32,000 nucleotides of DNA from Candidatus Saccharimonadota bacterium (GCA_020160975.1 JAIUPJ010000001.1:360001-392000); one strand, 5' to 3'; shown: positions 8,348 through 30,014, counted from the first letter of the stretch. Translations and numbers: made by a program. Notes: generated from the sequence alone by a model not told the origin.

Positions 8348-9078
8348 GTCCCTTCAGGTACAAAATTAACACCGCCGCTATTGACCGCATTTGCTTGCAG
8401 GACCACGCCAATCGCCTTTGTGCCTGTCAGCCCAGCCGTATCGACGCACATCAAATAGTCGGTGCTGGTTGTCCCCGAGGCGATTACCTCGCTTGGCTTC
8501 TTGTCCGCTTCACGCAGCACATAGGTGTGAACCAATCCAGAAGTTGGCATGCGAACTATCACGATACTAAATCGAAGTGGCGTATTGTTTTCGCTTCCTG
8601 CGCCAACGAGCCGCGAAGACCACCCCATGTCGTATGTCTCCTTCTTGGGATCTGCCACAAGTCCCGCATCGGAGAGGATCTGCGTATCGGTATCGGAGTC
8701 ATTGCGCGGCAGTGTCAGCGCATCGACAGTGGCATAGAGCTTCTGATAGCCAACGGTCTGACCGTCGGCCGAACTTGTCACGAGCTGTCCGACAACCGTG
8801 CAGCCGTCGCTCGCCCCTGCAATCGGCGAGCTGGTGGTGCCACCGCCGACGATGATACCCGATGCGCCGCAGACGTCTGTCTGTGGACGTGAGTTATTGA
8901 CATTCACCGTATCGTTGTATTGCCCTCTCATAAAATCAGCAAACGAACTCACCGCATCGTGATAACGTTCGCGGTTGAGCCCAACCGAAACACCCGTCAA
9001 AAGTGTTGCCATAATCACGCCAGTGATTGCCAGAAACAGCATCACTTCAATAACCGTGAACCCCCTATGCCTATCCAT
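8341..9078 (-). CDS. Prepilin-type minor pilin
   Basis: The N-terminus is MDRHRG/FTVIEVMLFLAITGVIMATLL (245 aa). Confidence 0.75.
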   Translation of the reverse strand: MDRHRGFTVIEVMLFLAITGVIMATLLTGVSVGLNRERYHDAVSSFADFMRGQYNDTVNVNNSRPQTDVCGASGIIVGGGTTSSPIAGASDGCTVVGQLVTSSADGQTVGYQKLYATVDALTLPRNDSDTDTQILSDAGLVADPKKETYDMGWSSRLVGAGSENNTPLRFSIVIVRMPTSGLVHTYVLREADKKPSEVIASGTTSTDYLMCVDTAGLTGTKAIGVVLQANAVNSGGVNFVPEGTC

Positions 9079-9090
9079 AACTATCTGTGA

Positions 9091-9996
9091 TTATACCATA
9101 AGCATCATGGCCGGGGCACTCATGAGCGCAAAAAACAGCTGAATTAGCGTATCGCCCCACAATAGCGTGACAAGGGTTCCGAGTATCAGAAACGGCCCAA
9201 ACGGGATATGCATGGATCGCTGTAGCTTGCCGGCTACAGCGATCGGAATAAGCATGAGACAGCCAAACAAATTTGCAAGAAACAACGCCAATAGAGCATA
9301 CTGCCACGACCCCATAATAAGGGCGAGCCCGACACAAAGGATACTATCACCCAACCCCACCCAGCCAAAAAGCGAAAAGATGAAATAAATCCCCGCCATA
9401 AACACTACGCCGAGAAGCATCGATCCCAGCACCTCACTCGACCAACCAGTCTCTGCCAGCACCACTCCTGCAATCAGGATAGCAACACCAATCAAGGCAA
9501 GGTTGATACGAAAAGGAAGGAGATACCATTTAGCGTCGTACACAAAGAGGATTGCCATCAGGACGCAAGCGACAAGCCACAGCGCAAAATGACCTAGCTG
9601 CAGGTTCGAAAGCAGCTGGTGTGGCCAAAAGAGAAACGAGAGAGCAAAGACTGCACCAAGCCCCAGCTCGGCGAGCACTTCGGTGCTGCCAATCGGCGCA
9701 TGACAGTATCTACATCGACCGCGCAAGCTGATCCAACTAATGCCCGGCAGTAAGTCATACCATGCAAGCGGATGATGGCAGGAAAGACACTCTGAGCGAT
9801 CATGACGAGGAGAACGGATCAGCCGTTTGAGACGATTCAGTTCTTTTCGCGCCACTTTCTCACCTGCCGCGTGATCTTCGACGAGCTGATGGGCTCGCAG
9901 ACGCCACACTTGAGCGACCGCAAAACTACCTAAGATTGCTCCCAGAATAAATAAGCTTGCTGCTGTTATCATGTCCCCCATACCTCTCCCTATCAT
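9091..9996 (-). CDS. pilD: Prepilin peptidase / N-methyltransferase (A24 family)
   Basis: A polytopic membrane protein with a cytoplasmic Cys pair motif, CLSCHHPLAWYDLLPGISWISLRGRCRYCHAPI. A GGAGGA RBS lies upstream of ATG 9996. Confidence 0.9.
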   Translation of the reverse strand: MIGRGMGDMITAASLFILGAILGSFAVAQVWRLRAHQLVEDHAAGEKVARKELNRLKRLIRSPRHDRSECLSCHHPLAWYDLLPGISWISLRGRCRYCHAPIGSTEVLAELGLGAVFALSFLFWPHQLLSNLQLGHFALWLVACVLMAILFVYDAKWYLLPFRINLALIGVAILIAGVVLAETGWSSEVLGSMLLGVVFMAGIYFIFSLFGWVGLGDSILCVGLALIMGSWQYALLALFLANLFGCLMLIPIAVAGKLQRSMHIPFGPFLILGTLVTLLWGDTLIQLFFALMSAPAMMLMV

Positions 9997-9999
9997 AAC

Positions 10000-10028
10000 A
10001 AAATCCTCCGCAATATACGGAGGATTTT
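10000..10028 (-). terminator. Hairpin between pilA and pilD (attenuating terminator overlapping the pilD RBS)
   Basis: On the minus strand, AAAATCCTCCG-tatattg-CGGAGGATTTT forms an 11-bp perfect stem, followed by GTT and then the pilD ATG. The 3' arm contains the GGAGGA Shine-Dalgarno sequence of pilD. Confidence 0.6.
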
Positions 10029-16306: not shown

Positions 16307-17358
16307 ACCGTTCCGCCTCTTTTTGCGAGCCCGATGGCTGTCGCAAACTCAGTTGCGACTGGACCGAGCTGACGCTGATCTTCCTGCGACAATTGAATAC
16401 CTTGCCAAGGATTGGCAACATGCGCCGGCTTGCCAGTCTTGCTGGCTAGATATGCGTCCAGCTGTGGCACCGCAGAAGCAAACCCAGCGATCAGTACCGC
16501 TTGAATCGCCACGCTCGGATAGCGTGTCTCAAAGAACTTAATCGATTTTGAAATCTCCGCTGCAAAACTATCCAGCGACACTTCGAGTGCACGCAATACT
16601 TGCCCCTCGAGCCGATCGGGTGCGAGCCCAAATTTCAAGATAAATTGTCGGGCTTGATCCTCTTGGACATTGAGATTGGCTACTGTTGCTTTGACAAACG
16701 ATGCGAGGCCAGTCGGAATGGTTCGCACCAGTCGCGGAGTATCGCCATACGTGATGGCGATATCGGTCGAATGCTCTCCCATATCAAGCTGCACGACCGC
16801 CCCCGACTGACCAGGAGTAGTCAAGGCGCGCACCATGGCGATTGGGTCTGGTTCGGCTGCAATTACATTGAGACCAAGTGATTCAACTAGCTCTAAGCGC
16901 GCTTCACTGTATTCCCTCGCTACACTCGATAGCAGGACTTCTTGCTGGTTCTGCGCCCGCAGTGATGGGCCGAGAAGCGCCCAATCAACCTTCGCTTCAT
17001 CAACTGCCATCGGAATATACTGATCAATCTGATATTTCATGGTTGCCTTGAGCTCAGACTCGTTGGTATTTGGCACATCAACCACGGTGGTAAAAGTCTT
17101 GCTCGATGGCAAACCGATCACAACATTTTTGCTGCGAATACCGCTCTGACCAACCGCTGTCATGATCACTTCGGCAACCTTGCGGCGCGACTCTTCTGAG
17201 TCGCTACTGGTTAATCTGCTATCTATTGGCGCATAGCCATAATGATCAAGACTCCAGCCCGACCCTGATTTGCGCAGCTGCACCACTCGAATCGCATTCG
17301 TCCCAATATCTAGCGCGAAAAAGTCGCCCATCCCTTTTAGCATACTCATCTTATCCAT
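16303..17358 (-). CDS. pilM: PilM actin-like ATPase of the pilus alignment complex
   Basis: 351 aa. It carries the ..FALDIGTNAIRVVQL.. phosphate-1 motif, ..LDMGEHSTDIAI.. and the overall FtsA/PilM pattern. Confidence 0.85.
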   Translation of the reverse strand: MDKMSMLKGMGDFFALDIGTNAIRVVQLRKSGSGWSLDHYGYAPIDSRLTSSDSEESRRKVAEVIMTAVGQSGIRSKNVVIGLPSSKTFTTVVDVPNTNESELKATMKYQIDQYIPMAVDEAKVDWALLGPSLRAQNQQEVLLSSVAREYSEARLELVESLGLNVIAAEPDPIAMVRALTTPGQSGAVVQLDMGEHSTDIAITYGDTPRLVRTIPTGLASFVKATVANLNVQEDQARQFILKFGLAPDRLEGQVLRALEVSLDSFAAEISKSIKFFETRYPSVAIQAVLIAGFASAVPQLDAYLASKTGKPAHVANPWQGIQLSQEDQRQLGPVATEFATAIGLAKRGGTV

Positions 17359-17403
17359 TAGTATACATAACTGTTACCGATTAGCGCAAGCGTTTTCAAA
17401 TGA

Positions 17404-20400
17404 TTAATATCGTGGAGGCAGCTCAGTGATCGCCCGCGTCGTCCATGTTCCGTTAAGCTCAGACAAGCGCCGCGACCAGATATAGGCATCTCCGCGCAAA
17501 TTCAAGGTCTCTGCCGCCCCTCCAGGAGTCGTTTTGTCGGCGCCGGCGGTACGACGCAGGAGAACATGACTAGCGGTCAACGCTCCGTTCACCTGTAGCG
17601 GCTGGTTGCAATCATTGATAGTTAGTTGTCCTGGGCCATTTGAACAGGTGTTAATTGTGCCATTTGGCGCAATCAACCACGCATCGACACGCCCAACTCC
17701 CGCTTGAATATTGATATCTGGCGCCACAATCACTAATTGGTTCATGTTTTTGTCATCAGACGAGGTGTCGTACGTCATATTGGTTGCCGTAATTGTCACT
17801 GTGCCTGTAGCTTGAATTACCGTACTTCTCTTCATAAGTTGATTTGCATTCACAAATGCATTGTCGATTGTCACGGCTCCACTTGGTATTATGTTGACAC
17901 CCTTGAGACCTGGACGAGACAAATACCCTCCAATGTTCGGAATCACACCCATCTGGCTGGCTGGGGCAAAGCTACCATAAGGCATCGTTACATTGGCGTG
18001 GGTCAGCTGGCTCCAGGATTGCTGCTGATCGCTTGCACTCCCCGCAGCGAGTCCGGAGGCCGAAGCAATGCTACGTATCGCATCTGGTGCATACATGCTG
18101 TACTCTCCCCATGAACCATAGGTCAGCTGCTTGGATGTATTCATCGATCCAGACAGACTAATATCTTCGATCATGAGCCCGGTGTGCGTGACTGTTGATT
18201 GCACCCACAACTCAAGCACGTTATCGGCACCTGGCTTAAAACTCTGACATCCTGTGTTGGCATTTTCAAAAGAGAATGGTAGCGTGCCAGCCCAGTAACC
18301 AGACCGCAACCATTGATCCGACCGTACGACCGGTACCCAATCGACATAGTTTCCGGCTGTCGGAAAATTGCGACCTGTCGCGAGCAACTGACATCCGTTT
18401 ACAAATGCTTTTACCCTATTGTCAATCGCACCCGCAATGGTTAGCTTAACGGTTGATAAGTCTGCATCTGCCGGCACAGTAAATTTATCTTTTAGTTTAA
18501 ATTTATAGATGTTGGCATTGTCATAACCACCACCAAGCGCCGAGGGGTCGCGGCACCGACTATCATTGTAGTTCTGACCGAAGACGTTTTGCCCAATCCA
18601 GCTCGCTGAAGTAGAGGTTCGACCCCACACATACGTTCCCACATCGCCAGGGCTAGCATTGCCCACGATCGCTCTTCGCGTAATTTTGATCCCGGCCTTG
18701 TTGCTGCTCTCAACCACGACGTACGCCGGTGTTTCACGGTCCATCGGCACTCTGGATGCACCGTCAAAGGAATATTGGCAGGTTTGCCCGATCGCACTAG
18801 AGCCATTTGGCCGAACTACCCCACTGATAGTCCAGTGTTGGTCGTTGTATTCGGGTTTGTAGAGATCTTTGTCAGATGCACCTCCATCATATGTAGCTGC
18901 TATTTTGCTTCCGCCGGCACCTACCCCAGTGCGCCATAACCCATAGGCTGAACTACCACTGAAGCTCCCTGTTGTCGAACCACCTTCGCGTGTACTAATC
19001 TTCCCTGTTATCCCAGAAGCAGCTGCGAGACCAGAGGTGATCGCCGAACCAACTCGCCCATCGTTCCCCCATATCTGAACTGTTGGCGACCTGCCAACCA
19101 GCACACAACTTGTCAGCCAGTCCGTCACCATCACCCTCACCCCAAGAGTAGGGGTCGAGATACGCCAGGCTGCACACACTCTACCGCCTTTTTGCATATC
19201 AAGCACACTAGTATTCATCGTAATTTCCTGGACACTGCCATCGGCCCTCACTGTGGCTACAGATGCACCCCCCGAGCCAAAAGGGCTACCCGTTGAAGAC
19301 GTATCAAAGTAACGACTGTCTCCCGTTGCTGGGTCATACGTTCTATCGGTTGCAGATTTTTCATACCAAATCCAGGCACTGTACTCTACCCTTGTGTCAA
19401 TCGCCGGCTGTGTATCATTTTTCACCTTAAACCGCGCCGTAAAACTTGACTCGTCAGTCGCGGTTGATCCGTCGGTCGGAGTGGTTTCAAGAATTGGCGT
19501 AATACCCCCGCGAGCCATTACCCGCACACACGACCAGGGGCTGGCACCACTGCCACCAGTTTGGTCTTTTGGCGCATATTCCAGCCGATGACAGAACGTA
19601 CTGCCGACATCCTCATTGCGAATCGTATAAGGGCCATAACATTCACCGGAGCCAGGAGGGTTAACTGTCGTCGTACCGCTACTCGAAAATGTGTACGCCG
19701 AGCCAGCAGGATTATTCTGTCGATCGCTGCCTGCAACACCAGCAATTTGGCAAGCATAGGTATAATCAATTGACCGCGACGAAAATAAGCCCGCTGTTTG
19801 GGTTGTTGTTAGATTATGTCTCCACAGAACGGTATCTCCCGGATAAACCACTGCATCGGCGGCGGCAACACTGCTCGAACCGTTGACATACGCATTCGAT
19901 ACAGCGCTATTGGTATATTTCGGTGCTGGTGGCGTACGTATCACCGTCACCTCGACTGGTTGTGCGTAGCACGATCCGCTCACTGATGTCCCATTACTAC
20001 TCATACAGCGGTACAAGTCGATAGTTATTGTCTCCTGTGCTGGAGAAGTAGCGTTATTCGTTGCGAGGCCAGTAACGTTAAGAGTCGCGGCTAAAGTGTT
20101 TCCCTGACTTGAGTAATAATATGGTGCAGGGCTAGGCAATCTACCTCGATACAATGAGGTTGATGAGAGTCCTGTCAACCTCCAGCCATTGCTTCCCCGC
20201 GGTGCGATATTAATTGCGTATGTTGGTCCGGGAAAGCCGTACATGCACGCATATACCGACCCTGCAATCTGTACCGGCACAGAATTTTGACCATCAGCCA
20301 CGACCACATTCTGTGTATAATAACTTGCTCCGCTGTTCGCAAACCAGATCGCTCCGCGTGCCCCATACGACGTCCCGGCAGCATAATTGCACATCCACCA

Positions 20401-20574
20401 TGCAGAGTTTTCTGCATTATTGAACCCGTAGTTGTTGTGATTTCTTGCAGGATCGCCCACTGCAGCAGAGGCAACGTCGCCGTGCAATAGCGATGCCGTC
20501 CCAACAGCAAGAGACAGCGCCATGACAGTGATGAGTTTTGAGAGAGCCGTCAATCGCATGCTAGCCCTGTACAT
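17404..20574 (-). CDS. Large secreted protein, function unknown; candidate pilus-associated adhesin
   Basis: 1056 aa. The signal peptide is MRLTALSKLITVMALSLAVGTASLLHGDVASA. A segment around residues 690-800 (..LTIAGAIDNRVKAFVNGCQLL..VLELWVQS..) looks like a PA14/lectin-type jelly-roll. The protein contains many Cys residues. The gene ends 45 nt upstream of pilM on the same strand. Confidence 0.6.
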   Translation of the reverse strand: MYRASMRLTALSKLITVMALSLAVGTASLLHGDVASAAVGDPARNHNNYGFNNAENSAWWMCNYAAGTSYGARGAIWFANSGASYYTQNVVVADGQNSVPVQIAGSVYACMYGFPGPTYAINIAPRGSNGWRLTGLSSTSLYRGRLPSPAPYYYSSQGNTLAATLNVTGLATNNATSPAQETITIDLYRCMSSNGTSVSGSCYAQPVEVTVIRTPPAPKYTNSAVSNAYVNGSSSVAAADAVVYPGDTVLWRHNLTTTQTAGLFSSRSIDYTYACQIAGVAGSDRQNNPAGSAYTFSSSGTTTVNPPGSGECYGPYTIRNEDVGSTFCHRLEYAPKDQTGGSGASPWSCVRVMARGGITPILETTPTDGSTATDESSFTARFKVKNDTQPAIDTRVEYSAWIWYEKSATDRTYDPATGDSRYFDTSSTGSPFGSGGASVATVRADGSVQEITMNTSVLDMQKGGRVCAAWRISTPTLGVRVMVTDWLTSCVLVGRSPTVQIWGNDGRVGSAITSGLAAASGITGKISTREGGSTTGSFSGSSAYGLWRTGVGAGGSKIAATYDGGASDKDLYKPEYNDQHWTISGVVRPNGSSAIGQTCQYSFDGASRVPMDRETPAYVVVESSNKAGIKITRRAIVGNASPGDVGTYVWGRTSTSASWIGQNVFGQNYNDSRCRDPSALGGGYDNANIYKFKLKDKFTVPADADLSTVKLTIAGAIDNRVKAFVNGCQLLATGRNFPTAGNYVDWVPVVRSDQWLRSGYWAGTLPFSFENANTGCQSFKPGADNVLELWVQSTVTHTGLMIEDISLSGSMNTSKQLTYGSWGEYSMYAPDAIRSIASASGLAAGSASDQQQSWSQLTHANVTMPYGSFAPASQMGVIPNIGGYLSRPGLKGVNIIPSGAVTIDNAFVNANQLMKRSTVIQATGTVTITATNMTYDTSSDDKNMNQLVIVAPDINIQAGVGRVDAWLIAPNGTINTCSNGPGQLTINDCNQPLQVNGALTASHVLLRRTAGADKTTPGGAAETLNLRGDAYIWSRRLSELNGTWTTRAITELPPRY

Positions 20575-21052: not shown

Positions 21053-21176
21053 TACTTATATCTCCTATTCTACTTATGGTTAGTATAACAGGATTGCGCT
21101 CCCAAAGAAAAGAACTATTCCCTACTCACCCATCGCTCGTACAACGAGCTCGGTATCTGCTATACTACTAACAATT

Positions 21177-21337
21177 ATGAGTTTAAGTATAGGCATATTA
21201 AAGTTCCAGCACAATTGCCTTTCGAACTAAAATTGCGTATCCCGAAGACTGACCACGGTGGTCGAGGCTATTCTAACGAGTACATTGCGAATATCGAAGA
21301 AAATCTATATCTCACCCGCACCGAATAACCAGCTCCC
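21177..21337 (+). pseudogene. Decayed copy of the ychF 5' end (codons 1 to about 60)
   Basis: ATG AGT TTA AGT ATA GGC ATA encodes MSLSIGI, identical to the first 7 residues of the intact YchF at 27603 but using different synonymous codons. Later blocks also align: attgcgaatatcgaagaaaat versus tttgcgacaatcgagccaaat (15/20), and ..ccagctcc versus ..acagctcc. The copy carries indels, frameshifts and an early stop. Similarity ends exactly at the left 18-bp repeat. Confidence 0.6.
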
Positions 21338-21355
21338 TGCTTCTCTCCTGCTATT
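21338..21355 (+). repeat. Left copy of the 18-bp direct repeat TGCTTCTCTCCTGCTATT
   Basis: An exact match to 27308..27325. It overlaps the stop codon of the cytochrome-b5-like gene. Confidence 0.9.
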
Positions 21356-21752
21356 CTTTAGCAAGTATTCCGATTTTGAGCTTAGCAAGTTGTTCGCTTG
21401 CCGCCTCGCTATGAGGGGTGCCTGAACCAACTGGCTGCCCCTCTTGAGTCTGACGTTTTGTAAATAAGGTTGTTGCATCCGTGCCACACGCCCGAAGTAT
21501 TTCATCACCCCCCGGATGACGATTAATAAACTTGGTCAAATCATATACGTCTCCAGATATAATTGCCCAGCAGTCTTCTTTTGAATCATGCTGTGCGACC
21601 TCGTTCATGGTGAATGTTTTTGCTTGTTCGGGTGCGTCTTGAGATGGTGTGTGGGGTTGGCGATTGACTACAAGCACCCAGATACCTGCTCCGATAGCGA
21701 CAACTAGGAATACGGCGATTACAGGTAATATGACGTCGCTCTTCTTACGCAT
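21351..21752 (-). CDS. Membrane-anchored cytochrome b5-like heme-binding domain protein
   Basis: 133 aa. An N-terminal TM is followed by ..FTMNEVAQHDSKEDCWAIISGDVYDLTKFINRHPGGDEIL.., which contains the HPGG motif. A later ..TPHSEA.. offers a candidate second His ligand. Confidence 0.7.
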   Translation of the reverse strand: MRKKSDVILPVIAVFLVVAIGAGIWVLVVNRQPHTPSQDAPEQAKTFTMNEVAQHDSKEDCWAIISGDVYDLTKFINRHPGGDEILRACGTDATTLFTKRQTQEGQPVGSGTPHSEAASEQLAKLKIGILAKE

Positions 21753-21788
21753 GAGTAACTCCTTTGTTCAGTATTGATGTCACTACTC

Positions 21789-22451
21789 CTAGTATCCCCA
21801 TTCTTGCTGCCATTGCTTCATCTGTTCGATTTCTTTTGTTTGAGCGGCTATAACCTCTCTCGCCAAGTCTTTGAGTTCTTGGTGATTGGCATTTGTTTCA
21901 GCGTAGCGAGACATCTCAATAGCTTGTTCATGATGAAGAATCATTTGTTTAAGAAACTCCTTATCGTATTCCTCGCCCTTGAGGTCTTTTAGTTTGTTCA
22001 TCATCTCGACCATATCACCGCCCATATCCATGCCAGCTCCACTATGACTCATGTGACCGCCACTCATCGTCTCTTTATACCCCCACTCTTTTTGCCACTC
22101 TCGCATTTTCATCACTTCTTGTCCTTGCGTCTGTATGATGTTGGTGGAAAGAGTGCGGATTTCTTCGTGGGCTGTAACGGCTCCAGCCTGCTCCGCCATA
22201 TTGAGAGCGCCGTCATGATGAGCTAGCATGTCAGCAATAAAGGCTTCGTCAAACTCGTCGCCGTAGAGAGTGGCGTATTTACTATCTGTGGTTTTCTCGT
22301 CATTAATAGTTTGCTGGGTCGTCTTCATGTCTTGAGCATCAGAAGTCTTTTCGGGTTTAATCGAAAAGACCCCAAAGTACCAAATGGCGGCCGCAAAAGC
22401 CACCAACACGATGATGATAACGGCAAACAGCTTGTTCTTCGTTATTTTCAT
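21789..22451 (-). CDS. DUF305 family protein (paralog a), membrane-anchored, with a Met/His-rich linker
   Basis: There are two DUF305 half-repeats (FIADMLAHHDGALNMAE and FLKQMILHHEQAIEMSR). They are separated by the linker MSGGHMSHSGAGMDMGGDMVEMM. Confidence 0.8.
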   Translation of the reverse strand: MKITKNKLFAVIIIVLVAFAAAIWYFGVFSIKPEKTSDAQDMKTTQQTINDEKTTDSKYATLYGDEFDEAFIADMLAHHDGALNMAEQAGAVTAHEEIRTLSTNIIQTQGQEVMKMREWQKEWGYKETMSGGHMSHSGAGMDMGGDMVEMMNKLKDLKGEEYDKEFLKQMILHHEQAIEMSRYAETNANHQELKDLAREVIAAQTKEIEQMKQWQQEWGY

Positions 22452-23077
22452 TACTCTCCCTTTTGTAAGTCTTCTAATCTTTTAATATCGTTCTTGTAGC
22501 TGGTGAGGCTTTTATTTTTGAATTCAATCAGCTTGCCATATTGAAGATCGCTAACCACACCGCTGTCCTGAATTGCGCCCTCGTGGTGTGCAATCATAAG
22601 ACTAATGAAAAGCCTGTCTGCGTCACTACCGGTTGCAGCTTTAAGCGTTGCCATGTTTGTTGCTGACGCGAGGCCAAGAAAAGTAGGGTACATGTCATGA
22701 CCGTCCATTTCAGGAAAATCAGACAGATTCGTGTATGTTTCGTTCCACTCGCCCAGCCAGCTCTTATATTGATCTTCGGCGCTTTTTTGCTCCTGTTGTA
22801 TCTTTGTAGCTATTTCACGGACAACTTGGTTGGTTGATACCGCTAAGACGGCCTCTGTCATCTCTATAGCTTGTTGGTTGTGGACAATCATCTTTCGAGA
22901 GAAGTCTACATCAGAAAAATCATGTTTGTTTGGATCGGGTTGATTTTGATTGTTACTTACAGGAGGCGTTGTTTTTGGTGGAGCTGAAACTGACCGGTTT
23001 TGAAAAACCAACCAGCCTAGCACGACCGCACCAACTACCGATGCTGCAATCAGTGTTACTAACGTCTTTTTCATCAC
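22451..23077 (-). CDS. DUF305 family protein (paralog b), divergent
   Basis: The half-repeats are FSRKMIVHNQQAIEMTE (HH replaced by HN) and LFISLMIAHHEGAIQDS. It has no Met-rich linker. An N-terminal TM is present. Confidence 0.7.
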   Translation of the reverse strand: MMKKTLVTLIAASVVGAVVLGWLVFQNRSVSAPPKTTPPVSNNQNQPDPNKHDFSDVDFSRKMIVHNQQAIEMTEAVLAVSTNQVVREIATKIQQEQKSAEDQYKSWLGEWNETYTNLSDFPEMDGHDMYPTFLGLASATNMATLKAATGSDADRLFISLMIAHHEGAIQDSGVVSDLQYGKLIEFKNKSLTSYKNDIKRLEDLQKGE

Positions 23078-23088
23078 TAGACCTCGCT

Positions 23089-23607
23089 CTACCTTGCAAG
23101 AGGCTCTGGGCTTTTCCCCAGATTCCTCATCACATACTCTTCTATTTTCTTTTGATCATAGCTTGCTAATGACTCACTTCTGCGCCACGAACTCAGCTCG
23201 ATAGGCGATGTATTAGCCTGACGGGGTGCAAGTACAATCTTCGTTGGCTTAAACTCTGAATTCGAGAATGGAGCGGACAGAAGACCCTTAAGCTTCTCAA
23301 TTTGATCTTGTGGCAAATCAGGTTGGTACGAGACATAGATTCCGCCATGCTCCATATTGTGTATCACTTGGTCGTCACGAACTTCAGTATCGTAAACGCC
23401 CCATGCAACGGGATTAGCATGCGAGCCAGAAGTAGGCGGTTGGTCACCGCCATACTCCTTGCTGCTCACGTGTTCACGGCCATGATCGGCTTGTTCAATG
23501 CCTGGACGTGGTGGTTCTGGTGGCCTATTTATCTTTCCGATTACCAAAGCCCCGCCAAACGCAATGACGATTGCCCCTATAACAATGGGGAATGGCTTAA
23601 CTTTCAT
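23089..23607 (-). CDS. DUF3105 domain protein, membrane-anchored
   Basis: The segment ..YGGDQPPTSGSHANPVAWGVYDTEVRDDQVIHNMEHGGIYVSYQPDLP.. matches the DUF3105 pattern as I remember it (PP.SG.H...WG.Y...H.LEHG). Confidence 0.75.
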   Translation of the reverse strand: MKVKPFPIVIGAIVIAFGGALVIGKINRPPEPPRPGIEQADHGREHVSSKEYGGDQPPTSGSHANPVAWGVYDTEVRDDQVIHNMEHGGIYVSYQPDLPQDQIEKLKGLLSAPFSNSEFKPTKIVLAPRQANTSPIELSSWRRSESLASYDQKKIEEYVMRNLGKSPEPLAR

Positions 23608-24250
23608 AACCCCAGTCTTTTTGCCATTGTTTCATCTGCTTGATTTCTTTTGTCTGTGCGGTGACGATTGCTTTTGTCAGGTCTTTCACTTCCTGATGTT
23701 CGGCGTTCTTTTCACCTGGTGCAGCCATATCAAGCGCTCCTTGGTGGTGCATGATCATTTGCTCGATAAAAGCTTTGTCAAACTCATCACCCGTCTTTCC
23801 CTCCAGGGCGCTGTTCATACCAGCCATCTCATCCATCATACCCATAGCACTGTGATCCATCATGTTGTCGGCACTTGTCGATGGATAACCCCATTCTTTT
23901 TGCCAAGCCGTCATCTGACTAATCTCACCCTCTTGAGCCGAGATGATGTCGTTCGCCATATCTTTCAGCTCTTGGTGCTTGGCATTTTTCTGTGCTAGCT
24001 TCGCCATATCAACAGCACCTTGGTGGTGGGCTATCATATTGGCGATGAAATTACGGTCATAGGTTTCGCCAGTCATGGCAGCATATTGCTTGTATGTATC
24101 TGACGTTGTATCGACTTGTGCCATTTCTGATAGTGGCTGGACTGAAACGCTTCGGAATAGTTGGTCACGGAACACAAAAGTCGCAACACCCACTACAACT
24201 ACAAAAGCGACAAGACCTACAATTAGCATTTGTTTATTCTTTTTATTCAT
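23597..24250 (-). CDS. DUF305 family protein (paralog c), membrane-anchored, with a Met-rich linker
   Basis: The half-repeats are FIANMIAHHQGAVDMAK and FIEQMIMHHQGALDMAA, joined by the linker NMMDHSAMGMMDEMAGMN. An AGGAG RBS is present. Confidence 0.8.
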   Translation of the reverse strand: MNKKNKQMLIVGLVAFVVVVGVATFVFRDQLFRSVSVQPLSEMAQVDTTSDTYKQYAAMTGETYDRNFIANMIAHHQGAVDMAKLAQKNAKHQELKDMANDIISAQEGEISQMTAWQKEWGYPSTSADNMMDHSAMGMMDEMAGMNSALEGKTGDEFDKAFIEQMIMHHQGALDMAAPGEKNAEHQEVKDLTKAIVTAQTKEIKQMKQWQKDWGYES

Positions 24251-24297
24251 AAAGTACTCCTAATTTAGCTATTTAGTAAAACGTAAACAGCTAAATC

Positions 24298-24672
24298 TCA
24301 AGCACGAAAGACGGTCAAACCAATGTAGGCGGGTACGCCACCAGGGGGTGGTTCTCTATCCCCGGCAGCTCTTGTCTCTTGACTATGCTTTTCTTCAAGG
24401 GCCAAAAGGCGTGATGTCTGGAACTGAACATAAAATGGAGGCTGCGGCTTGTCATCCTCGTCTTTCTCGGTACCTTTGATGAACTCGTCTTTGTGAAGAG
24501 TTGCCGTCGTACAAGCAGTAAAACAATTCGATGAACTTACTTGATGAGATGCACCCCCCATTGAGTGCCCCATATTCATCGTCTGCACAGCAGCCGCATG
24601 TATACCTAACGACAGCACACTGAGTACTGAAAGCATGAATACGGAAACAACTCCTTGGAACACTCGTTTCAT
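24298..24672 (-). CDS. Secreted hypothetical protein with an N-terminal Met/His motif
   Basis: 124 aa. The signal peptide (VVSVFMLSVLSVLSLGIHAAA) is followed by VQTMNMGHSMGGASH, a CxxxC-like stretch (CFTAC), and an acidic and Pro-rich tail. Confidence 0.5.
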   Translation of the reverse strand: MKRVFQGVVSVFMLSVLSVLSLGIHAAAVQTMNMGHSMGGASHQVSSSNCFTACTTATLHKDEFIKGTEKDEDDKPQPPFYVQFQTSRLLALEEKHSQETRAAGDREPPPGGVPAYIGLTVFRA

Positions 24673-24711
24673 ATCTCTATTTTACCGTAATTTACCCCAA
24701 CCGTCATATTT

Positions 24712-24771
24712 CTAGTAGTTTGCTTCGCTGTAATGATGATGGTGATGTTCGTGTTCGTCGTGGTTGTGCAT
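24712..24771 (-). CDS. 19-aa His-rich micro-ORF (MHNHDEHEHHHHHYSEANY)
   Basis: The sequence is not in the ORF track. On the minus strand, the TAA stop of the ATPase is followed directly by GGAGGTAGT and then ATG CAC AAC CAC GAC GAA CAC GAA CAT CAC CAT CAT CAT TAC AGC GAA GCA AAC TAC TAG. Nine of its 19 residues are His. Confidence 0.4.
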   Translation of the reverse strand: MHNHDEHEHHHHHYSEANY

Positions 24772-24780
24772 ACTACCTCC

Positions 24781-26919
24781 TTATAATTTTACCCGTCGTA
24801 AGAACTGTGCGTTGATAGCAACGATAATGGTCGAGAGCGACATTAGAACAGCTCCTAGTGCTGGCGAGAGGACAAAACCAAGTACCGAGGTAACACCAGC
24901 AGCTAGTGGAATCGCCAGAGCATTATAACCAGTCGCCCAAGCAAGGTTTTGAAGCATCTTGCTGTAGGTACGTTTTGAAAGCGTCACGATTTTCGCCACA
25001 CCTCGTGGGTCGCTGCTTGCGAGCACGATTCCAGCCGACTCAATCGCCACATCCGTACCCGCACCAATCGCAATGCCGATATTAGCTTGTGTCAGTGCCG
25101 GTGCATCATTTACTCCATCACCGACCATCGCTACCCGGCTGCCGTCGGCCTGTAACTTCTTGACCGTCTCGGCTTTGTTTTCGGGCAAGACTTCGGCGAA
25201 GTACTCTTTTATACCAAGTTCTTTTGCTACCCATGCCGCCACACCCTTGCTATCACCCGTCAGCATAGCAACTCGCTTACCCATACTGTGAAGTGTTGCC
25301 ACAGCTTCCTTTGATTCCTCACGAATAACATCGGCAAGTAGAATAGCTCCGAGTACCGTCTTATTTTCGATAACATACACGACAGTTTTTCCATCAGTTG
25401 AGGCTTCGCCTGTGGCTGTTTGCAGTTCATCGTCTAGTTCAATATCCAATTCTTCGAGTAATCTCGGCCCACCGACGTAGACGCTTTTTCCGTCAGCCTT
25501 GGCTCGTACACCACGACCAGAAAGTGCCGAAAAGTCAGTGGTGTGAGTTTCCGGCACATTTTGACCGTGTGCATACTGGAAAATCGCTTTCGCAATTGGG
25601 TGTTCTGATTCACGCTCAAGAGCAGCAGCAAGGCCAAGAACATGGTTCTTGTCTTTAGCAATGACATCAACCACACCCTGCTCACCCTTTGTCAGCGTAC
25701 CTGTCTTATCAAACAATACGACGTCGATATTGCGTGCCGCTTCGAGTGCCATTCGTTCACGCACCAGCAGCCCATTCTTTGCCGCTAGCGTCGTAGAGAT
25801 AGCCGTGACAAGTGGGATAGCCAAACCAAGAGCATGTGGACAAGCAATCACTAACACCGTTACGACTCGCTCAAAAATAAACCCAGCCGACTCACCAGCC
25901 AGCCACCAACCAATAAGCGTCAGTAAGGCTGCACCGATAGCAATAAATGTAAGATAAAAAGCCGCTTTGTCTGCGAGTACTTGTGTTTTTGACTTGCTAG
26001 TCTGAGCGTCTTCAACCAGCTTCATGATGCCAGCAAGTGCCGTATCGCTGCCGACTTTCGTGACTTCAATTGTCAGTGCTCCATTAGCGTTAATTGTACC
26101 CCCAATTACCTCGGCTCCAATCGCTTTCTTTACCGGCTTTGATTCACCCGTAAGCATTGACTCGTTTATCTCGGATTCACCTTTGATGACAGTCCCGTCT
26201 ACAGGTACTTGAGTACCCGGGCGAACAAGTATCATATCACCGACTTTGAGCTGGCTGACAGAGACAGTGCGGCTTTTCCCATGTTCGAGTAACTCCGCCT
26301 CATCGGGTAGTAACTTGGCAAGTTCGTTTAACGCACCTTGTGCACTTTCCACCGACGCCATTTCTAGCCAGTGACCAAGCAACATAATCGTCACTAATGT
26401 GGCCAGTTCCCACCAGAAGTCCATACCACTAACGAGCTTGAGCGTGACGAGGCTGCTATAAATAAACGCAACGGTAATCGCCATTGAAATAAGCGTCATC
26501 ATGCCAGGCTGCTTAGCTGCAAGCTCGGCCTTGGCACTCTTTAGGAATACTAAGCCGCCATAGAAAAAGATAATCGCACCAAAAATAGCTGGAATATATT
26601 CGCTGCCAGGAAACATCAGCTCAAAGCCTAGCCAGCCCTGAACGGTGTGCGAAAACAACAGCGTCGGGATAGTCAGCAGAAGACCCAGCCAAAACTTTTG
26701 CTTGAACATATTAGGGCTATGTCCAGCGTGCTTGTCATGGTCGTGTTCATGGGACGGCTGTACCTTTGTCTTTTCTAAAGCCATATGGCACTTCGGACAC
26801 ATGCCTGGCTTGTCTGATGTTACATCAGGGTGCATTGGGCAAGCATACTGCATATCTGACTGTGTGAGCATGGCGTCGTGGCTCATACCTTGGTGATGGT
26901 GATGTTCGTGATGATTCAT
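24781..26919 (-). CDS. copB: Heavy-metal (copper-type) P1B ATPase with a CPH transmembrane motif and a His-rich N-terminus
   Basis: 712 aa. Motifs present are TGES, DKTGTLT, SEHPIAKAI, GDGVNDAPAL and the TM motif VIACPHALGL. The N-terminus is MNHHEHHHHQGMSHD, followed by CPMHPDVTSDKPGMCPKCHM and SHEHDHDKHAGH. Confidence 0.9.
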   Translation of the reverse strand: MNHHEHHHHQGMSHDAMLTQSDMQYACPMHPDVTSDKPGMCPKCHMALEKTKVQPSHEHDHDKHAGHSPNMFKQKFWLGLLLTIPTLLFSHTVQGWLGFELMFPGSEYIPAIFGAIIFFYGGLVFLKSAKAELAAKQPGMMTLISMAITVAFIYSSLVTLKLVSGMDFWWELATLVTIMLLGHWLEMASVESAQGALNELAKLLPDEAELLEHGKSRTVSVSQLKVGDMILVRPGTQVPVDGTVIKGESEINESMLTGESKPVKKAIGAEVIGGTINANGALTIEVTKVGSDTALAGIMKLVEDAQTSKSKTQVLADKAAFYLTFIAIGAALLTLIGWWLAGESAGFIFERVVTVLVIACPHALGLAIPLVTAISTTLAAKNGLLVRERMALEAARNIDVVLFDKTGTLTKGEQGVVDVIAKDKNHVLGLAAALERESEHPIAKAIFQYAHGQNVPETHTTDFSALSGRGVRAKADGKSVYVGGPRLLEELDIELDDELQTATGEASTDGKTVVYVIENKTVLGAILLADVIREESKEAVATLHSMGKRVAMLTGDSKGVAAWVAKELGIKEYFAEVLPENKAETVKKLQADGSRVAMVGDGVNDAPALTQANIGIAIGAGTDVAIESAGIVLASSDPRGVAKIVTLSKRTYSKMLQNLAWATGYNALAIPLAAGVTSVLGFVLSPALGAVLMSLSTIIVAINAQFLRRVKL

Positions 26920-27200
26920 TATTTACCCCTCACATTGTGTAGCTCGTATAGTTGTGATAGCTCGCTTAGTGCCTTCTCTTGTTGTTTTTCATCGCCAGAT
27001 GCCATCATTGCCTTAATATGTGTAGCGATATGGTTTTCAAGCACCAGCTTGTTGAGCGACGCCAGAGACTTCTGAATAGCAAGACTTTGCGTCAAAATAT
27101 CCATGCAATACACATCTCCATCAATCATTTTTTGCAAACCCTTGAACTGGCCTTCGATTATCTTGGACCTGTGTGTCGTTCTCTCTTTTACTGTCTTCAT
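26919..27200 (-). CDS. csoR: CsoR/RcnR-family metal-sensing transcriptional repressor
   Basis: 93 aa. The segment ..IIEGQFKGLQKMIDGDVYCMDILTQSLAIQKSL..LENHIATHI.. carries the family ligand positions Cys, His and then His where CsoR has Cys. The stop overlaps the ATPase ATG by 1 nt. Confidence 0.85.
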   Translation of the reverse strand: MKTVKERTTHRSKIIEGQFKGLQKMIDGDVYCMDILTQSLAIQKSLASLNKLVLENHIATHIKAMMASGDEKQQEKALSELSQLYELHNVRGK

Positions 27201-27203
27201 AGA

Positions 27204-27237
27204 TTCTATGATATACCCCCCTGGGGTATATTGTCAA
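27204..27237 (-). promoter_or_regulatory. Promoter with an embedded CsoR-type operator; probably produces a leaderless csoR transcript
   Basis: On the minus strand, TTGACA (27237..27232) is followed by an 18-nt spacer and TATCAT (27213..27208), then 7 nt and the ATG. The spacer is the palindrome ATATACCCC-nnn-GGGGTATAT (27211..27231). That is the G/C-tract-in-AT-arms architecture known for CsoR operators. There is no Shine-Dalgarno sequence before the ATG. Confidence 0.65.
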
Positions 27238-27307
27238 CAACGTAAACCATTCATGATTAGCCCATCAATAAACAGACTGGAGTACTATGTTTATGTTAGA
27301 ATTACCG

Positions 27308-27325
27308 TGCTTCTCTCCTGCTATT
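27308..27325 (+). repeat. Right copy of the 18-bp direct repeat TGCTTCTCTCCTGCTATT
   Basis: An exact match to 21338..21355. It lies 108 bp upstream of the csoR ATG. Confidence 0.9.
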
Positions 27326-27424
27326 TATTGTTCAAACATCCTACAAAGCCACGCTTTTGGGTCGTCGTTTAGCATTAATCGTTCGACTAGCCCCTCTTCC
27401 TCAACAAACAGAAGTATAAGTGGT

Positions 27425-27571
27425 AAAATAGATGTCGATGTACTCGTTGCTAAAGCTACTCAAAAGCTTGGCGAAGTCACCTTTCAGCAAAAGAAACATA
27501 TTGTTGAGCGAGTTATTAATAAAGTTATTGCAAGTCCGCAGGAGGTCACCATATGGGGTCAAATACCCTTA
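27425..27571 (+). pseudogene. Remnant resembling the C-terminal end of a large serine recombinase
   Basis: The frame translates to KIDVDVLVAKATQKLGEVTFQQKKHIVERVINKVIASPQEVTIWGQIPL. This resembles the conserved tail of recombinase-family proteins (..FEEKR.ii..lv.kV.v....v.I.g.iP). No catalytic domain lies upstream. The track ORF 27287..27679 begins with low-complexity sequence and runs into ychF. This is a recognition-based call only. Confidence 0.35.
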
Positions 27572-27602
27572 ACAGCTGTTTTAGCCACAAGAAAGGTCAA
27601 GA

Positions 27603-28685
27603 ATGAGCCTGTCCATCGGCATAGTCGGACTGCCAAATGTTGGCAAGTCTACCCTCTTCAATGCGTTAACGCACAATGATATTCTTGCGGCTAACTATCC
27701 ATTTGCGACAATCGAGCCAAATACAGGTGTCGTACCTGTCCCTGATGAGCGCCTGGAAGCACTCGCAAAGCTCTACAGCTCCGAAAAGATCGTCCCAGCG
27801 ACGGTGTCGTTCGTCGACATCGCCGGTCTCGTAGCAGGCGCCAGTAAGGGCGAAGGGCTTGGCAACAAGTTTTTGGCCAACATCCGCGAGTGTGATGCCA
27901 TTGTGCACATTGTTCGTGCGTTTGAAAATGATGATATCATCCATGTCAGCCACGGCATCAACCCCCAACGCGACATTGAGACGATCGAAACCGAGCTCAT
28001 GCTCGCGGATATCGAGACCATCGACCGCGTACTCCCACGCCTACAAAAAGAATCAAAGGCACAGCCAAAGGCAAAGGGTTCGGTACAACTGCTCGAATCG
28101 CTCCGTACCTCACTCGAGCAAGCCGACCCACTTCCTGCTCGTGCCCACACTGCAGAGCTCAAAGAACTTGGGCTACAGCTCCTATCTGCAAAGCCCGTCA
28201 TCTATGTGTTCAATGTCAACGAAGAAACACTCGTCAATGCCGAGGCAAAAGCTGCGCTCACCGCCCTGGCGCGCGAATCAAAAGCGCTGTTCATCTGCGC
28301 CAAGCTCGAGGACGAGCTCAAAGGGCTAAATCCTAGCGACGCCGCCGAGCTACTCGATAGTTACGATATTCCCGAGGCCGGTCTCGTACAAATGATTCAC
28401 GCGGCCTATGATATCCTCGGCCTGCAGAGTTACTTGACTGCTGGGCCAAAAGAAGTCCGCGCGTGGACCATCAAAAAAGGTGCCACGGCACCGCAAGCTG
28501 CTGGTGTGATTCACGGCGACTTTGAGCGCGGATTTATCGCGGCGCAGATCATTGATTATCATGACCTCGTCGCCGCAGGCAGCGAAACAGCCGCAAAAGC
28601 CGCTGGCAAAGTCCGCACCGAGGGAAAAGACTATATCATGCAGCCCGATGACGTGGTAGAGTTTCGATTCAACGTCAGCAAATAA
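27603..28685 (+). CDS. ychF: Redox-regulated ATPase YchF (Obg-like GTPase family)
   Basis: 360 aa. The N-terminus MSLSIGIVGLPNVGKSTLFNALT is followed by ..ATIEPNTGVVPVPDERL.. and ..DIAGLVAGASKGEGLGNKFL... The C-terminal TGS-like end reads VRTEGKDYIMQPDDVVEFRFNV. Confidence 0.95.
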   Translation: MSLSIGIVGLPNVGKSTLFNALTHNDILAANYPFATIEPNTGVVPVPDERLEALAKLYSSEKIVPATVSFVDIAGLVAGASKGEGLGNKFLANIRECDAIVHIVRAFENDDIIHVSHGINPQRDIETIETELMLADIETIDRVLPRLQKESKAQPKAKGSVQLLESLRTSLEQADPLPARAHTAELKELGLQLLSAKPVIYVFNVNEETLVNAEAKAALTALARESKALFICAKLEDELKGLNPSDAAELLDSYDIPEAGLVQMIHAAYDILGLQSYLTAGPKEVRAWTIKKGATAPQAAGVIHGDFERGFIAAQIIDYHDLVAAGSETAAKAAGKVRTEGKDYIMQPDDVVEFRFNVSK

Positions 28686-28892: not shown

Positions 28893-28978
28893 TATTAATT
28901 TTCTACTTTGAATCATCCGTATGATAGGAAAACCTATTTGGTTTTACCTATAATTATACAAATGAGAAGAGGCCGCAC

Positions 28979-29015
28979 CGGGCCCTGCCAACGCTTGATT
29001 GCGTCGCAGGGCCCG
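28979..29015 (-). terminator. GC-rich hairpin just 3' of the high-GC surface-protein gene
   Basis: The arms CGGGCCCTGC and GCAGGGCCCG form a 10-bp stem with a 17-nt loop, 20 nt downstream of the stop at 29036. There is no clear T-run. Confidence 0.35.
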
Positions 29016-29035
29016 ATAACGGCCTCAGAAATCAG

Positions 29036-30014
29036 TCATCTTCTCTCTTGGCGGCGCCGCCGCCACGCCACCAGCAGAACCAAGATCCCGAGAGCCAGGG
29101 CAATGCCCAGACCGATCGGCAGGACGAACGACTCGCCTGGCAACTTGGGCGTCGCGGTCAGGGTTGACCCGTCCGCGCTCTCATTCAAGCTGTTCTGGTC
29201 GGTGTCCGCTGGCAGCGGACCCTCCGAGTTCGGCGGGATGACCTGGTTCGTCTGGTTCGGCTGGTCGACATACCCTGGTGTTGAGGGGGTGCCGACGACG
29301 AGAGTCGCGGTGCGGGTTGACCCGTCCGCGCTCTTGATCCAGCTGTTCTGGTCGGTGTCCGCTGGCAGCGGATCCTTCCAGGTCGGCGGGATGACCTGGT
29401 TCGGCTTGTTCGGCGGGTCGACAGACCCTGGTGTCGAGGGAATGTCGACGACGATGACGGGTGGGATGACCACCACGCCGTCGTCCGACGGAAGCCCGAA
29501 GACCTTGGGGGCCGTCGTCTCGTCCGTCCAGGTGCTCCCCTCGACAACGAGAGTCGCGGTGCGGGTTGACCCGTCCGCGCTCTCACTCCAGTCGATCTTG
29601 TCGGTGTCCGCTGACAGCGGATCCTTCCAGGTCGGCGGGATGACCTGGTTCGGCTGGTTCGGCGGGTCGACAAACCCTGGTGTTGAGGGAATGTCGACGA
29701 CGCACGAGAACGGGCGAACGGTGCCGCCGTACGTGCTGTAGTACGGCAAGCCGGTTGGGTCACCGTCCCTGAGCCACATGATCGTGGGCCGGAGCAGGCG
29801 CCTCCTCCTCGGTGACTGTCGGAGCGACGGTCTCCTCTGCTGGCTCGGGAGCCGGCGGGGTGTCGACGACGTCGGAGGCAGCCGGAACGACCGCCTCCGA
29901 GGTCGCGACGACCTCGGTCTGGCTGGGAACGTCATCGGCCGAAGCCGAAGACGCTCCCATGAAGGTCAGGCCGGCGGCAAGGATGCCACAGGCCAGCTTA
30001 CGCGAAATCTTCAC
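29036..30014 (-). pseudogene. High-GC, repeat-containing, C-terminally anchored surface protein gene, interrupted by a frameshift
   Basis: GTG start at 30014 with a GAGGAA RBS. The signal peptide is MKISRKLACGILAAGLTFMGASSASA, followed by an Ala/Pro/Glu/Thr-rich spacer (frame a, stop at 29760). The sensible continuation is in another frame: ..WLRDGDPTGLPYYSTYGG, then three copies of a roughly 51-aa repeat. The C-terminus is ..KLPGESFVLPIGLGIALALGILVLLVAWRRRRQERR, a sorting-signal-like motif plus TM plus basic tail. The N-terminal part of the track ORF 29036..29935 is Arg/Pro/Ser noise from the wrong frame. Confidence 0.6.
29151..29705. repeat. Three intragenic copies of a roughly 153-nt repeat (starts 29151, 29304, 29553)
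   Basis: Each copy begins GTCGCGGT(C/G)(A/C)GGGTTGACCCGTCCGCGCTC.. and continues ..GGTGTCCGCTG(G/A)CAGCGGA(T/C)CC..GGCGGGATGACCTGGTTCG... Copies 1 and 2 are adjacent, with a period of 153 nt. Copies 2 and 3 are separated by an extra 96 nt. Confidence 0.85.

Follow-up and report, generated by a model that had tools for sequence, protein, structure and literature searches.

A large serine recombinase element that probably targets codon 6 of ychF and rebuilds the start of the gene in Saccharibacteria

Why are the first seven codons of ychF present twice at one locus of a Saccharibacteria (TM7) genome? In the 32,000-nt stretch of Candidatus Saccharimonadota bacterium analyzed here (GCA_020160975.1, JAIUPJ010000001.1:360001-392000; hereafter the window), an intact ychF of 360 aa (27603-28685, + strand; Pfam MMR_HSR1 and YchF-GTPase_C) opens with ATGAGCCTGTCCATCGGCATA (27603-27623), and ATGAGTTTAAGTATAGGCATA at 21177-21197 encodes the same seven residues, MSLSIGI, with 14 of 21 nucleotides identical. 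This duplication, correctly pointed out in an initial annotation of the sequence, flanks an island with copper-resistance genes that lies between ychF and a type IV pilus operon (left of 21052, - strand). Our analysis makes it highly probable that 21177-21328 is the left attachment-site (attL) scar of an integrative element that encodes a large serine recombinase (LSR), has codon 6 of ychF as its target and carries its own attachment site (attP) inside the 3′ end of its LSR gene. We observe sequence homologies at both ends of the island, an in-frame join between them, a recurring architecture, empty sites in other species and tandem insertions that end at 27619.

The upstream copy lies where ychF itself would be expected to begin. 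In the island-free loci L001, L004, L005 and L012, which represent other species, ychF is directly divergent from the pilus-side genes, as the initial annotation had predicted for relatives without the island; L002 has the same gene order with more intervening DNA. The distance from the stranded ATG at 21177 to the divergent 163-aa gene, the first of the pilus operon, is 124 nt (start to start), and in L001, the closest species representative (YchF 84% identical at the protein level), the ychF ATG is 95 nt away from the start of the adjoining 186-aa gene. By this synteny the ATG at 21177 occupies the expected position of the native ychF start, and the proposal that the original start was left beside the pilus-operon promoter region agrees with it. 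Native codons 1-5 (ATGAGTTTAAGTATA; 21177-21191, + strand) would form the B arm of attL; their codon usage resembles that of native starts in L002, L004, L106 and L107, and differs from that of the copy at the right end (attR) up to the base before a shared GG. A −10-like box, TATACT (21161-21166, + strand), stands 10 nt upstream of the stranded ATG and may be the orphaned native ychF promoter. Similar boxes (TAAAAT, TATAAT, TAGAAT, TATACT) precede the ychF ATG by 7-12 nt in empty-site relatives and in other attL copies, which suggests that the native ychF transcript is leaderless or has a very short leader.

Beyond codon 7 the resemblance to ychF fades to chance level. The initial annotation had taken the region as a 160-nt decayed pseudogene of ychF codons 1-60, with frameshifts and a premature stop, that abuts the left of two 18-bp attachment repeats, the island bringing its own codons 1-60. 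When the first 21 nt were excluded and 21198-21336 was aligned with ychF codons 8-60, the observed score was equalled or exceeded by 246 of 1000 shuffles in global mode and by 159 of 1000 in local mode. With the YchF N-terminus as query, tblastn recovered residues 1-8 only from the relic region, and blastn of this region against L001, the closest empty-site relative, matched 22 nt around the ATG and nothing else. YchF can be aligned with that of L001 along its full length without an identity break, and no break near codon 60 appears in comparisons with L001, L002 or L004. The duplicated start and an exact 18-bp direct repeat, TGCTTCTCTCCTGCTATT, do exist, as this explanation needs, but the right copy of the repeat sits 278 nt upstream of the ychF ATG instead of abutting codon ~60, the repeat motif is internal in related elements and does not mark the element ends, and secondary insertions break at codon 6. 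The left junction, too, is placed at codon 6, with no more than 15-17 nt of native ychF left there (21177-21193 at most). Moreover, 21194-21328 is an open frame homologous to LSR tails. We therefore regard a decayed 60-codon pseudogene as very improbable; that an element inserted into the 5′ end of ychF, supplied a diverged start (codons 1-5, in the arm described below) and left the 360-aa gene intact is the part of the earlier proposal that holds.

The open frame (21194-21328, + strand; HIKVPAQLPFELKLRIPKTDHGGRGYSNEYIANIEENLYLTRTE) consists of 44 codons and a TAA stop codon at 21326-21328, and is very probably the displaced 3′ tail of an LSR gene as well as the P′ arm of attL. Translation of 21197-21325 yields IKVPAQLPFELKLRIPKTDHGGRGYSNEYIANIEENLYLTRTE, which is homologous to the LSR tail of L095 (tblastn E ~1e-8) and also matches L015 and L010; at the nucleotide level, the local alignment score of 50 with the tail of the conspecific contig L102 was reached by 0 of 1000 shuffles. 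A tail motif, QLPFELKLxMPxTDxGxRGYSDxY, is conserved in 7 sequences (alignment A1). LSRs in the integrated state (P0001, P0002 and P0135) are without this motif and end in an out-of-frame read of ychF. In the tail comparisons synonymous changes equal or outnumber non-synonymous ones (11 versus 6 over 27 codons between L102 and L095), a pattern that indicates probable purifying selection on the tail as real coding sequence, reaching well past a plausible recombinase-binding half-site. When 27287-27619 is joined to 21194-21328 at the shared GG (21192-21193 and 27618-27619), one unbroken open reading frame (ORF) results, ending with the TAA at 21326-21328. A comparable continuation occurs in L095, where two elements lie in tandem and the upstream LSR ORF (P0005) runs for ~40 codons across the P-GG-P′ junction to end in ..GKVNYDPQYWYSEVLIQLPFELNLAMPPTDKGKRGYSDEYVARTKNELKSVL*.

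L011 (ATGAATTTATCTATCGG|CATAACC..), L010, L106, L107 and L109 likewise have a relic of the ychF start, in host-specific form, that leads into a homologous P′ arm and tail. The MSLSIGI copy could in principle be a chance match or a local duplication with no mobile element involved, and a seven-residue match on its own is modest, with a tblastn E value of 0.03 even in a 401-nt search space. The copy lies, however, exactly where synteny places the ychF start, and the arrangement of relic and tail, each time with host-specific codons, is repeated in at least five other loci, so that we find a coincidence of this kind scarcely credible.

At the other end of the island, 27411-27617 (+ strand) is a 3′ remnant of ~70 codons of a clade-A LSR gene and would constitute the P arm of attR. 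A tblastn comparison of 27395-27631 with the LSR C-terminus of L007, where the LSR runs into the ychF start, gave 52% identity (E 5e-20). Within this arm lie a ribosome-binding-like GAAAGG (27591-27596, + strand) and, in a second frame, the ychF codons 1-5 that the element appears to supply (27603-27617, + strand). GGAAAGGTCAA is conserved in all P arms and is followed by three variable bases and the ATG. The LSR 3′ region further contains a promoter candidate, TCAACA-17-TAAAAT (27401-27429, including TGGTAAAAT at 27421-27429), a consensus match; our promoter and terminator scans returned consensus-level matches only, no more than shuffled sequence gives, so that they carry little weight. The P arm may thus provide the translation signals of ychF, and perhaps its promoter. 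The native remainder of ychF, from the third base of codon 6 to the stop codon, occupies 27620-28685 (+ strand).

Where, then, did the two molecules cross over? We infer a GG dinucleotide, the first two bases of the Gly-6 codon of ychF, which is represented at 21192-21193 in attL and at 27618-27619 in attR. Four observations converge on this placement. Next to the crossover, attL and attR last differ at the base that precedes GG, with A at 21191 and C at 27617. As far as 27619 the window is matched colinearly by three conspecific contigs (L102, L114 and L116) and by the ORFs P0131-P0134, which right after CATCGG continue with four different tails, and contig L103 ends exactly at 27619. The tandem junction in L095 has an inner dyad, GACCCTCAGTATT-GG-TATAGTGAGGTTC, that is centered on GG and symmetric at 10 of 13 positions by inspection, together with outer AAAGGT/ACCTTT motifs. 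Finally, GG is invariant in every chromosomal attachment site (attB) and empty site. The two ends share GG and four mimicked bases (CATA) only, and no long identical core flanks the element. The B′ half-site corresponds to ychF codons 7-13, which encode the conserved GxPNVGKS P-loop, and P-loop conservation would explain how one element family can target many species. The initial annotation had the island supplying codons 1-60; the junction at codon 6 replaces this assignment.

On this basis we propose the following model. The P arm would serve three purposes at once: it encodes LSR residues, it holds in a second frame a ribosome-binding-like GGAAAGG, an ATG and five ychF codons, and it acts as a recombinase half-site. 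Recombination at the GG shared with attB (the Gly-6 codon) would place the P arm ahead of the native ychF body and create attR (27411-27619). The native promoter and codons 1-5 would be left stranded beside the pilus operon, where they continue into the P′ arm and the final 44 LSR codons as attL (21177-21328). Integration would at the same time swap the conserved 44-residue tail of the LSR for a short out-of-frame read of ychF. ychF would stay intact because the P arm supplies a start in front of the native body.

The same layout is present in at least eight other Saccharibacteria loci, in every case at a ychF that neighbors the type IV pilus operon; some of these loci have intact LSRs and different cargo. 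LSR homologues were collected as P0001-P0010, and the contigs L091, L092-L094 and L095 are independent metagenomic ones. In L091, L092-L094, L095, L114 and L118, an intact LSR gene (encoding Resolvase, Recombinase and Zn_ribbon_recom domains) directly precedes ychF and overlaps its start. The LSR is 536 aa long in L095 and 567 aa long in L114; a 561-aa LSR in L119 stands in the same element layout, with the far end and ychF outside the stretch examined, and each of these three proteins has all three Pfam domains. The window retains only the last ~70 codons and the tail, a remnant and not a functional LSR. A 61-aa HTH_17 gene immediately upstream of the LSR in L092, L114 and L118 is a candidate directionality factor. 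Among the domains listed for the genes of the examined elements there is no tyrosine-integrase (Phage_integrase) domain and none for conjugative transfer.

Several independent copies are decayed, and all of them keep the last ~70-130 LSR codons (P0138; L011, 9725-10023; L117, 1576-2019; L118, 4806-5201); in P0138 the remnant is fused to unrelated N-terminal sequence, with the break at ..F|KIDID... Such retained LSR ends are consistent with selection for ychF-proximal expression signals or with a deletion hotspot. Sister elements carry a 1003-aa SMC_N/AAA_21 protein (L091, 4330-7341), a complete restriction-modification cluster of DNA methylase, RE_NgoFVII, Z1 and Vsr (L095, 1517-5988) and a LexA-like S24 peptidase (L092, 3953-4582), and no homology was seen between the 183-aa cargo ORF of L010 and the 183/184-aa ORFs of L091 and L092. 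Some conspecific strains possess an extra, apparently intact 6.6-kb tandem element with a D-Ala-D-Ala ligase (Ddl) gene, a Peptidase_M15/VanY-like gene, an HTH_17 gene and a 567-aa LSR; it occupies 10328-16982 of L114, and its ligase and peptidase genes are reminiscent of Van-type genes. Given this variety of cargo, the ychF site would represent a defense and resistance island hotspot in Saccharibacteria.

The cargo in the window is a copper-resistance operon (21351-27200, - strand) with csoR, a P-type ATPase gene, a 124-aa ORF, DUF305, DUF3105, two more DUF305 genes and a cyt-b5 gene (Pfam assignments). A promoter-like site upstream of csoR (TTGACA-18-TATCAT; 27208-27237, - strand) matches the consensus and may serve csoR, and a CsoR-type palindrome, ATACCCCCCTGGGGTAT (27213-27229), overlaps it. 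In L106-L111 and L119, which come from other species, related elements at this locus also carry the copper operon, and the L119 element additionally has DUF5067, DnaD_N and its intact LSR. Colinearity with the copper element of L106 stops at 27410, inside a 54-aa ORF. Up to that point the identity is mosaic: 24733-27410, at the ATPase-csoR end of the operon, shares 99.3% identity with L106/L108, which belong to another species of Saccharibacteria (GCA_034286115.1), and the rest of the operon, 21350-24736, is ~78% identical to L106, with a sharp boundary between the two parts. This implies that part of the operon was exchanged very recently between elements that resided in different host species.

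The island gives the impression of two elements in tandem that a deletion near 27410 has collapsed into one. In a first step, a clade-B copper element would have integrated at the native attB and given rise to attL, the tail and the cargo. A clade-A element would then have integrated in tandem at the attR of the copper element; of it only the last ~70 LSR codons remain. Third, a deletion near 27410/27411 would have taken out the sequence between the 54-aa ORF and roughly codon 400 of the clade-A LSR, including both recombinase catalytic domains; the element in the window is dead. On this history, the LSR of a complete copper element should be of clade B at its C-terminus and should lead into a ychF start, with ..AATATAGG|CAT.. 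where the two meet. The clade assignments come from LSR comparisons: the LSR of L119 belongs to clade B, with 64-67% identity to the second-element LSRs of L095 and L114 and to the LSR of L118 and 41% to clade A, and the LSR remnant of the window belongs to clade A (58% identity to P0002, 33-36% to clade-B LSRs). A single copper element with an internal deletion, whose attL tail and attR remnant come from the same LSR gene, would save one event, and it accommodates the in-frame join of two open frames. It is nevertheless an unlikely history: the copper-element LSR in L119 is clade B and the window remnant clade A, the P′ arm of the window is nearly identical to the P′ arm CATATTAAAGTTCCAACACAATTGCCTTTCGAGC of the copper-carrying elements L106, L107 and L109, the dyad symmetry between the P and P′ arms of the window is poor, and tandem arrays with LSR 3′ remnants are common in the ychF-targeting LSR family.

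The 18-bp repeats lie well inside the crossovers that we propose, 145 nt from the one in attL and 294 nt from the one in attR, and they are not attachment sites. The left copy (21338-21355) overlaps the cyt-b5 stop codon, and the right copy (27308-27325) lies upstream of the csoR promoter, with a single-nucleotide polymorphism in the L099 and L102 copy. Within the loci examined, exact or near-exact 18-mers are confined to this species and L106/L108, and L109-L111 have a variant that differs at 2-3 of 18 bases; its form in L109, TGCTATTCTCCTGCTATY (at 9395 and 2256), is found at the stop codons of cyt-b5 and DUF5067, and L106 has one clear copy only, on the csoR side. As a ribosome-binding site of a downstream ORF the 18-mer was rejected, with no start codon at a suitable distance by inspection; it is possibly a cassette-boundary or transcript 3′-end signal. 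One could also imagine that the repeats record an independent site-specific insertion or cassette exchange, through which the copper operon was put as a module into an older scar. An exact repeat of this length (~5e-4 matches expected in 8 kb, by our estimate) that brackets the operon precisely would fit such an event, as would the fact that the two copies of one element co-vary (window, TGCTTCTC..; L109, TGCTATTC..) and the recent segmental exchange of 24733-27410 (99.3% identity to L106, against 78% for 21350-24736). Yet the 99.3% segment does not coincide with the repeat-bounded interval 21338-27325, the second copy in L109 follows DUF5067 and not csoR, L106 has its one clear copy, no recombinase is associated with the module, and the position of the motif at or just past stop codons may reflect a role at the RNA level or a terminator-like one. 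A separate cassette insertion thus appears quite unlikely.

Several points weigh against integration at codon 6 as we describe it. All functional statements about the element are read from sequence. The position of the crossover rests on few bases and assumes that no later mutation occurred there. The P-P′ dyad of the window itself is weakly symmetric, ~6 of 13 positions by eye, which is expected if the two arms derive from different elements. No free circular attP form was seen among our sequences, and every P-GG-P′ junction that we found could belong to a tandem array. Exact look-ups of YchF and of the 163-aa pilus-side protein recovered no conspecific empty site, all 40-odd conspecific contigs that were read carrying the island, so that the primary insertion is deduced from other species, whose YchF is at most 84% identical at the protein level. 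L114 was considered as a same-species occupied and empty pair for both junctions, and its right junction was rejected: its left flank is 97.6% identical to the window, but its right-flank ychF (16942-18015) only 65%, and beyond the second element L114 may be a chimeric assembly or have a recombinant flank. L010, finally, has an attL scar (8491-8610) with a relic of the ychF start and an LSR tail, and before its ychF no LSR remnant is present; a second, ~75% similar copy of the native-looking promoter and start region (9880-10000) stands there instead, an arrangement that the simple integration model leaves unexplained.

We tentatively extend the integration model in a direction that is open to considerable doubt. 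An attP inside the LSR gene could act as a state sensor, the circle encoding a tailed LSR and the integrated element a tail-less one, and the P arm could make ychF expression dependent on the element, in what would be a hitherto undescribed family of small integrative elements, with a major hotspot for cargo in Saccharibacteria. The 44-residue tail would then bias LSR activity, stability or directionality toward integration or excision. Dependence of ychF on element DNA, amounting to addiction through capture of its promoter and ribosome-binding site, would explain why independent decayed copies all retain the final ~200 nt of the LSR gene.

Mobile elements of Saccharibacteria and of the Candidate Phyla Radiation (CPR) at large are poorly characterized. 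The locus would define a family of small LSR elements that use one highly conserved target, ychF codon 6, just before the P-loop codons, and for which both attB and attP can be reconstructed, and a tandem hotspot for copper resistance, restriction-modification, D-Ala-D-Ala ligase with VanX/Y-like peptidase, and SMC/AAA-type genes. It would also offer an unusually compact overlap of recombinase coding sequence, a second-frame mimic of a host gene start and a recombination site, and may be of interest for finding new serine integrases with defined sites. For annotation, the true ends of the island are probably 21192/21193 and 27618/27619, and short ORFs such as 21177-21230 and 27287-27679 are better read as attachment-site scars than as genes. 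The former is the 17-codon ORF opened by the orphaned native start (MSLSIGILKFQHNCLSN*), and if the native promoter were still active, transcription from it would run antisense into the 3′ end of the copper operon.

The surroundings of the island show variation of their own. Besides the 163-aa first gene, the pilus operon includes PilM, two T2SSE ATPases, T2SSF and a 1056-aa protein (17404-20574). Over ~1 kb in the middle of the latter (18123-19157), the conspecific strains L096, L098 and L101 are without alignment to the window; the flanks of the unaligned part are 97-99% identical, and the protein has 1068 aa or 1051/1056 aa among strains. The segment appears to be hypervariable, in what is probably a surface or pilus-associated protein. 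On the other side, a G+C-rich stretch (28908-29935, up to 66%) with ~153-nt tandem repeats (29151-29454, extra copies as far as 29702) separates ychF from an FtsJ/S4 gene, which in many related species is directly 3′ of ychF. The gene called at 28908-29935 has 267, 350, 443 or 453 aa among conspecific contigs, and no Pfam match was obtained on either strand. Rfam and tRNA scans of the window returned nothing at the locus.

How does the element compare with known systems? In the literature searched we met with no LSR whose attP lies in the 3′ end of its own gene, no element that targets ychF codon 6 and no account of a ychF-element family. The initial annotation had likened the locus to SXT-type elements at prfC, which is apt for the function and wrong for the recombinase, here a large serine and not a tyrosine enzyme. 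SXT/R391 integrative and conjugative elements reportedly integrate at prfC, as Hochhut and Waldor are said to have found in 1999. They share with the ychF elements a target at the 5′ end of a conserved gene for a translation-associated GTPase, to which the element gives expression signals and the first codons so that the gene remains functional. They differ in their tyrosine recombinase, 17-bp core and ~100-kb conjugative makeup, whereas the ychF elements have an LSR, a putative 2-bp crossover, a size of 6-12 kb and no conjugation genes shown, and embed the replacement start out of frame inside the recombinase gene.

Other LSR elements also integrate into ORFs: Bxb1 in groEL1, A118 in comK, SPbeta in spsM and SCCmec at rlmH. 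Common to these and the ychF elements are the Resolvase-Recombinase-Zn ribbon architecture, short and imperfectly symmetric attachment sites, a central dinucleotide and intragenic targets, and the small HTH_17 gene by the recombinase could be a directionality factor here as well. Most of them, however, disrupt the target or sit at its 3′ end, with attP beside the recombinase gene, whereas attP of the ychF elements appears to lie in the LSR 3′ coding region, and their integration would restore the target 5′ end and alter the LSR C-terminus. Part of these examples are named in PMC8092301.

An attP inside the integrase gene is known from SSV-type archaeal integrases (PMC8371274). There, too, attP falls within the recombinase gene, which integration divides, so that free and integrated proteins differ; those enzymes, however, are tyrosine recombinases of archaeal viruses that target tRNA genes, whereas the bacterial LSR would lose a 44-residue tail at a protein-coding start. 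Integration-dependent immunity of mycobacteriophages such as BPs and Brujita (Broussard et al. 2013, cited in PMC8092301; PMC3694055) is a further parallel. In these phages attP lies at the 3′ end of a phage gene, and the C-termini of the free and integrated proteins differ. That gene, however, encodes the repressor, which loses an ssrA-like degradation tag on integration, and the recombination is carried out by a tyrosine integrase; in the ychF elements the gene is that of the recombinase itself. Whereas ssrA-type tags end in ..AA, the LSR tails end in ..LTRTE, ..KSVL, ..ELTL, ..ELTT and ..EKIS and are not ssrA-like.

In Tn4451/Tn4453, which use the recombinase TnpX, the circular joint of Tn4451 is said, in work attributed to Lyras and Rood (2000), to create the promoter of the TnpX gene. 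By our model the circular joint of an LSR element changes the recombinase gene in both cases, but the joint of the ychF elements would complete the 3′ end of the ORF and form no promoter. The pneumococcal prophage group PPH005 is integrated next to ychF, and a defective prophage there was reported to affect ychF expression (PMC8637289). ychF flanks the integration site in both systems; the prophages differ in their intergenic attB (between a DUF951 gene and ychF), tyrosine integrase and Firmicute host. Judged by its recombinase architecture and the properties of its putative attachment sites, the element at ychF codon 6 belongs to the LSR integrative elements.

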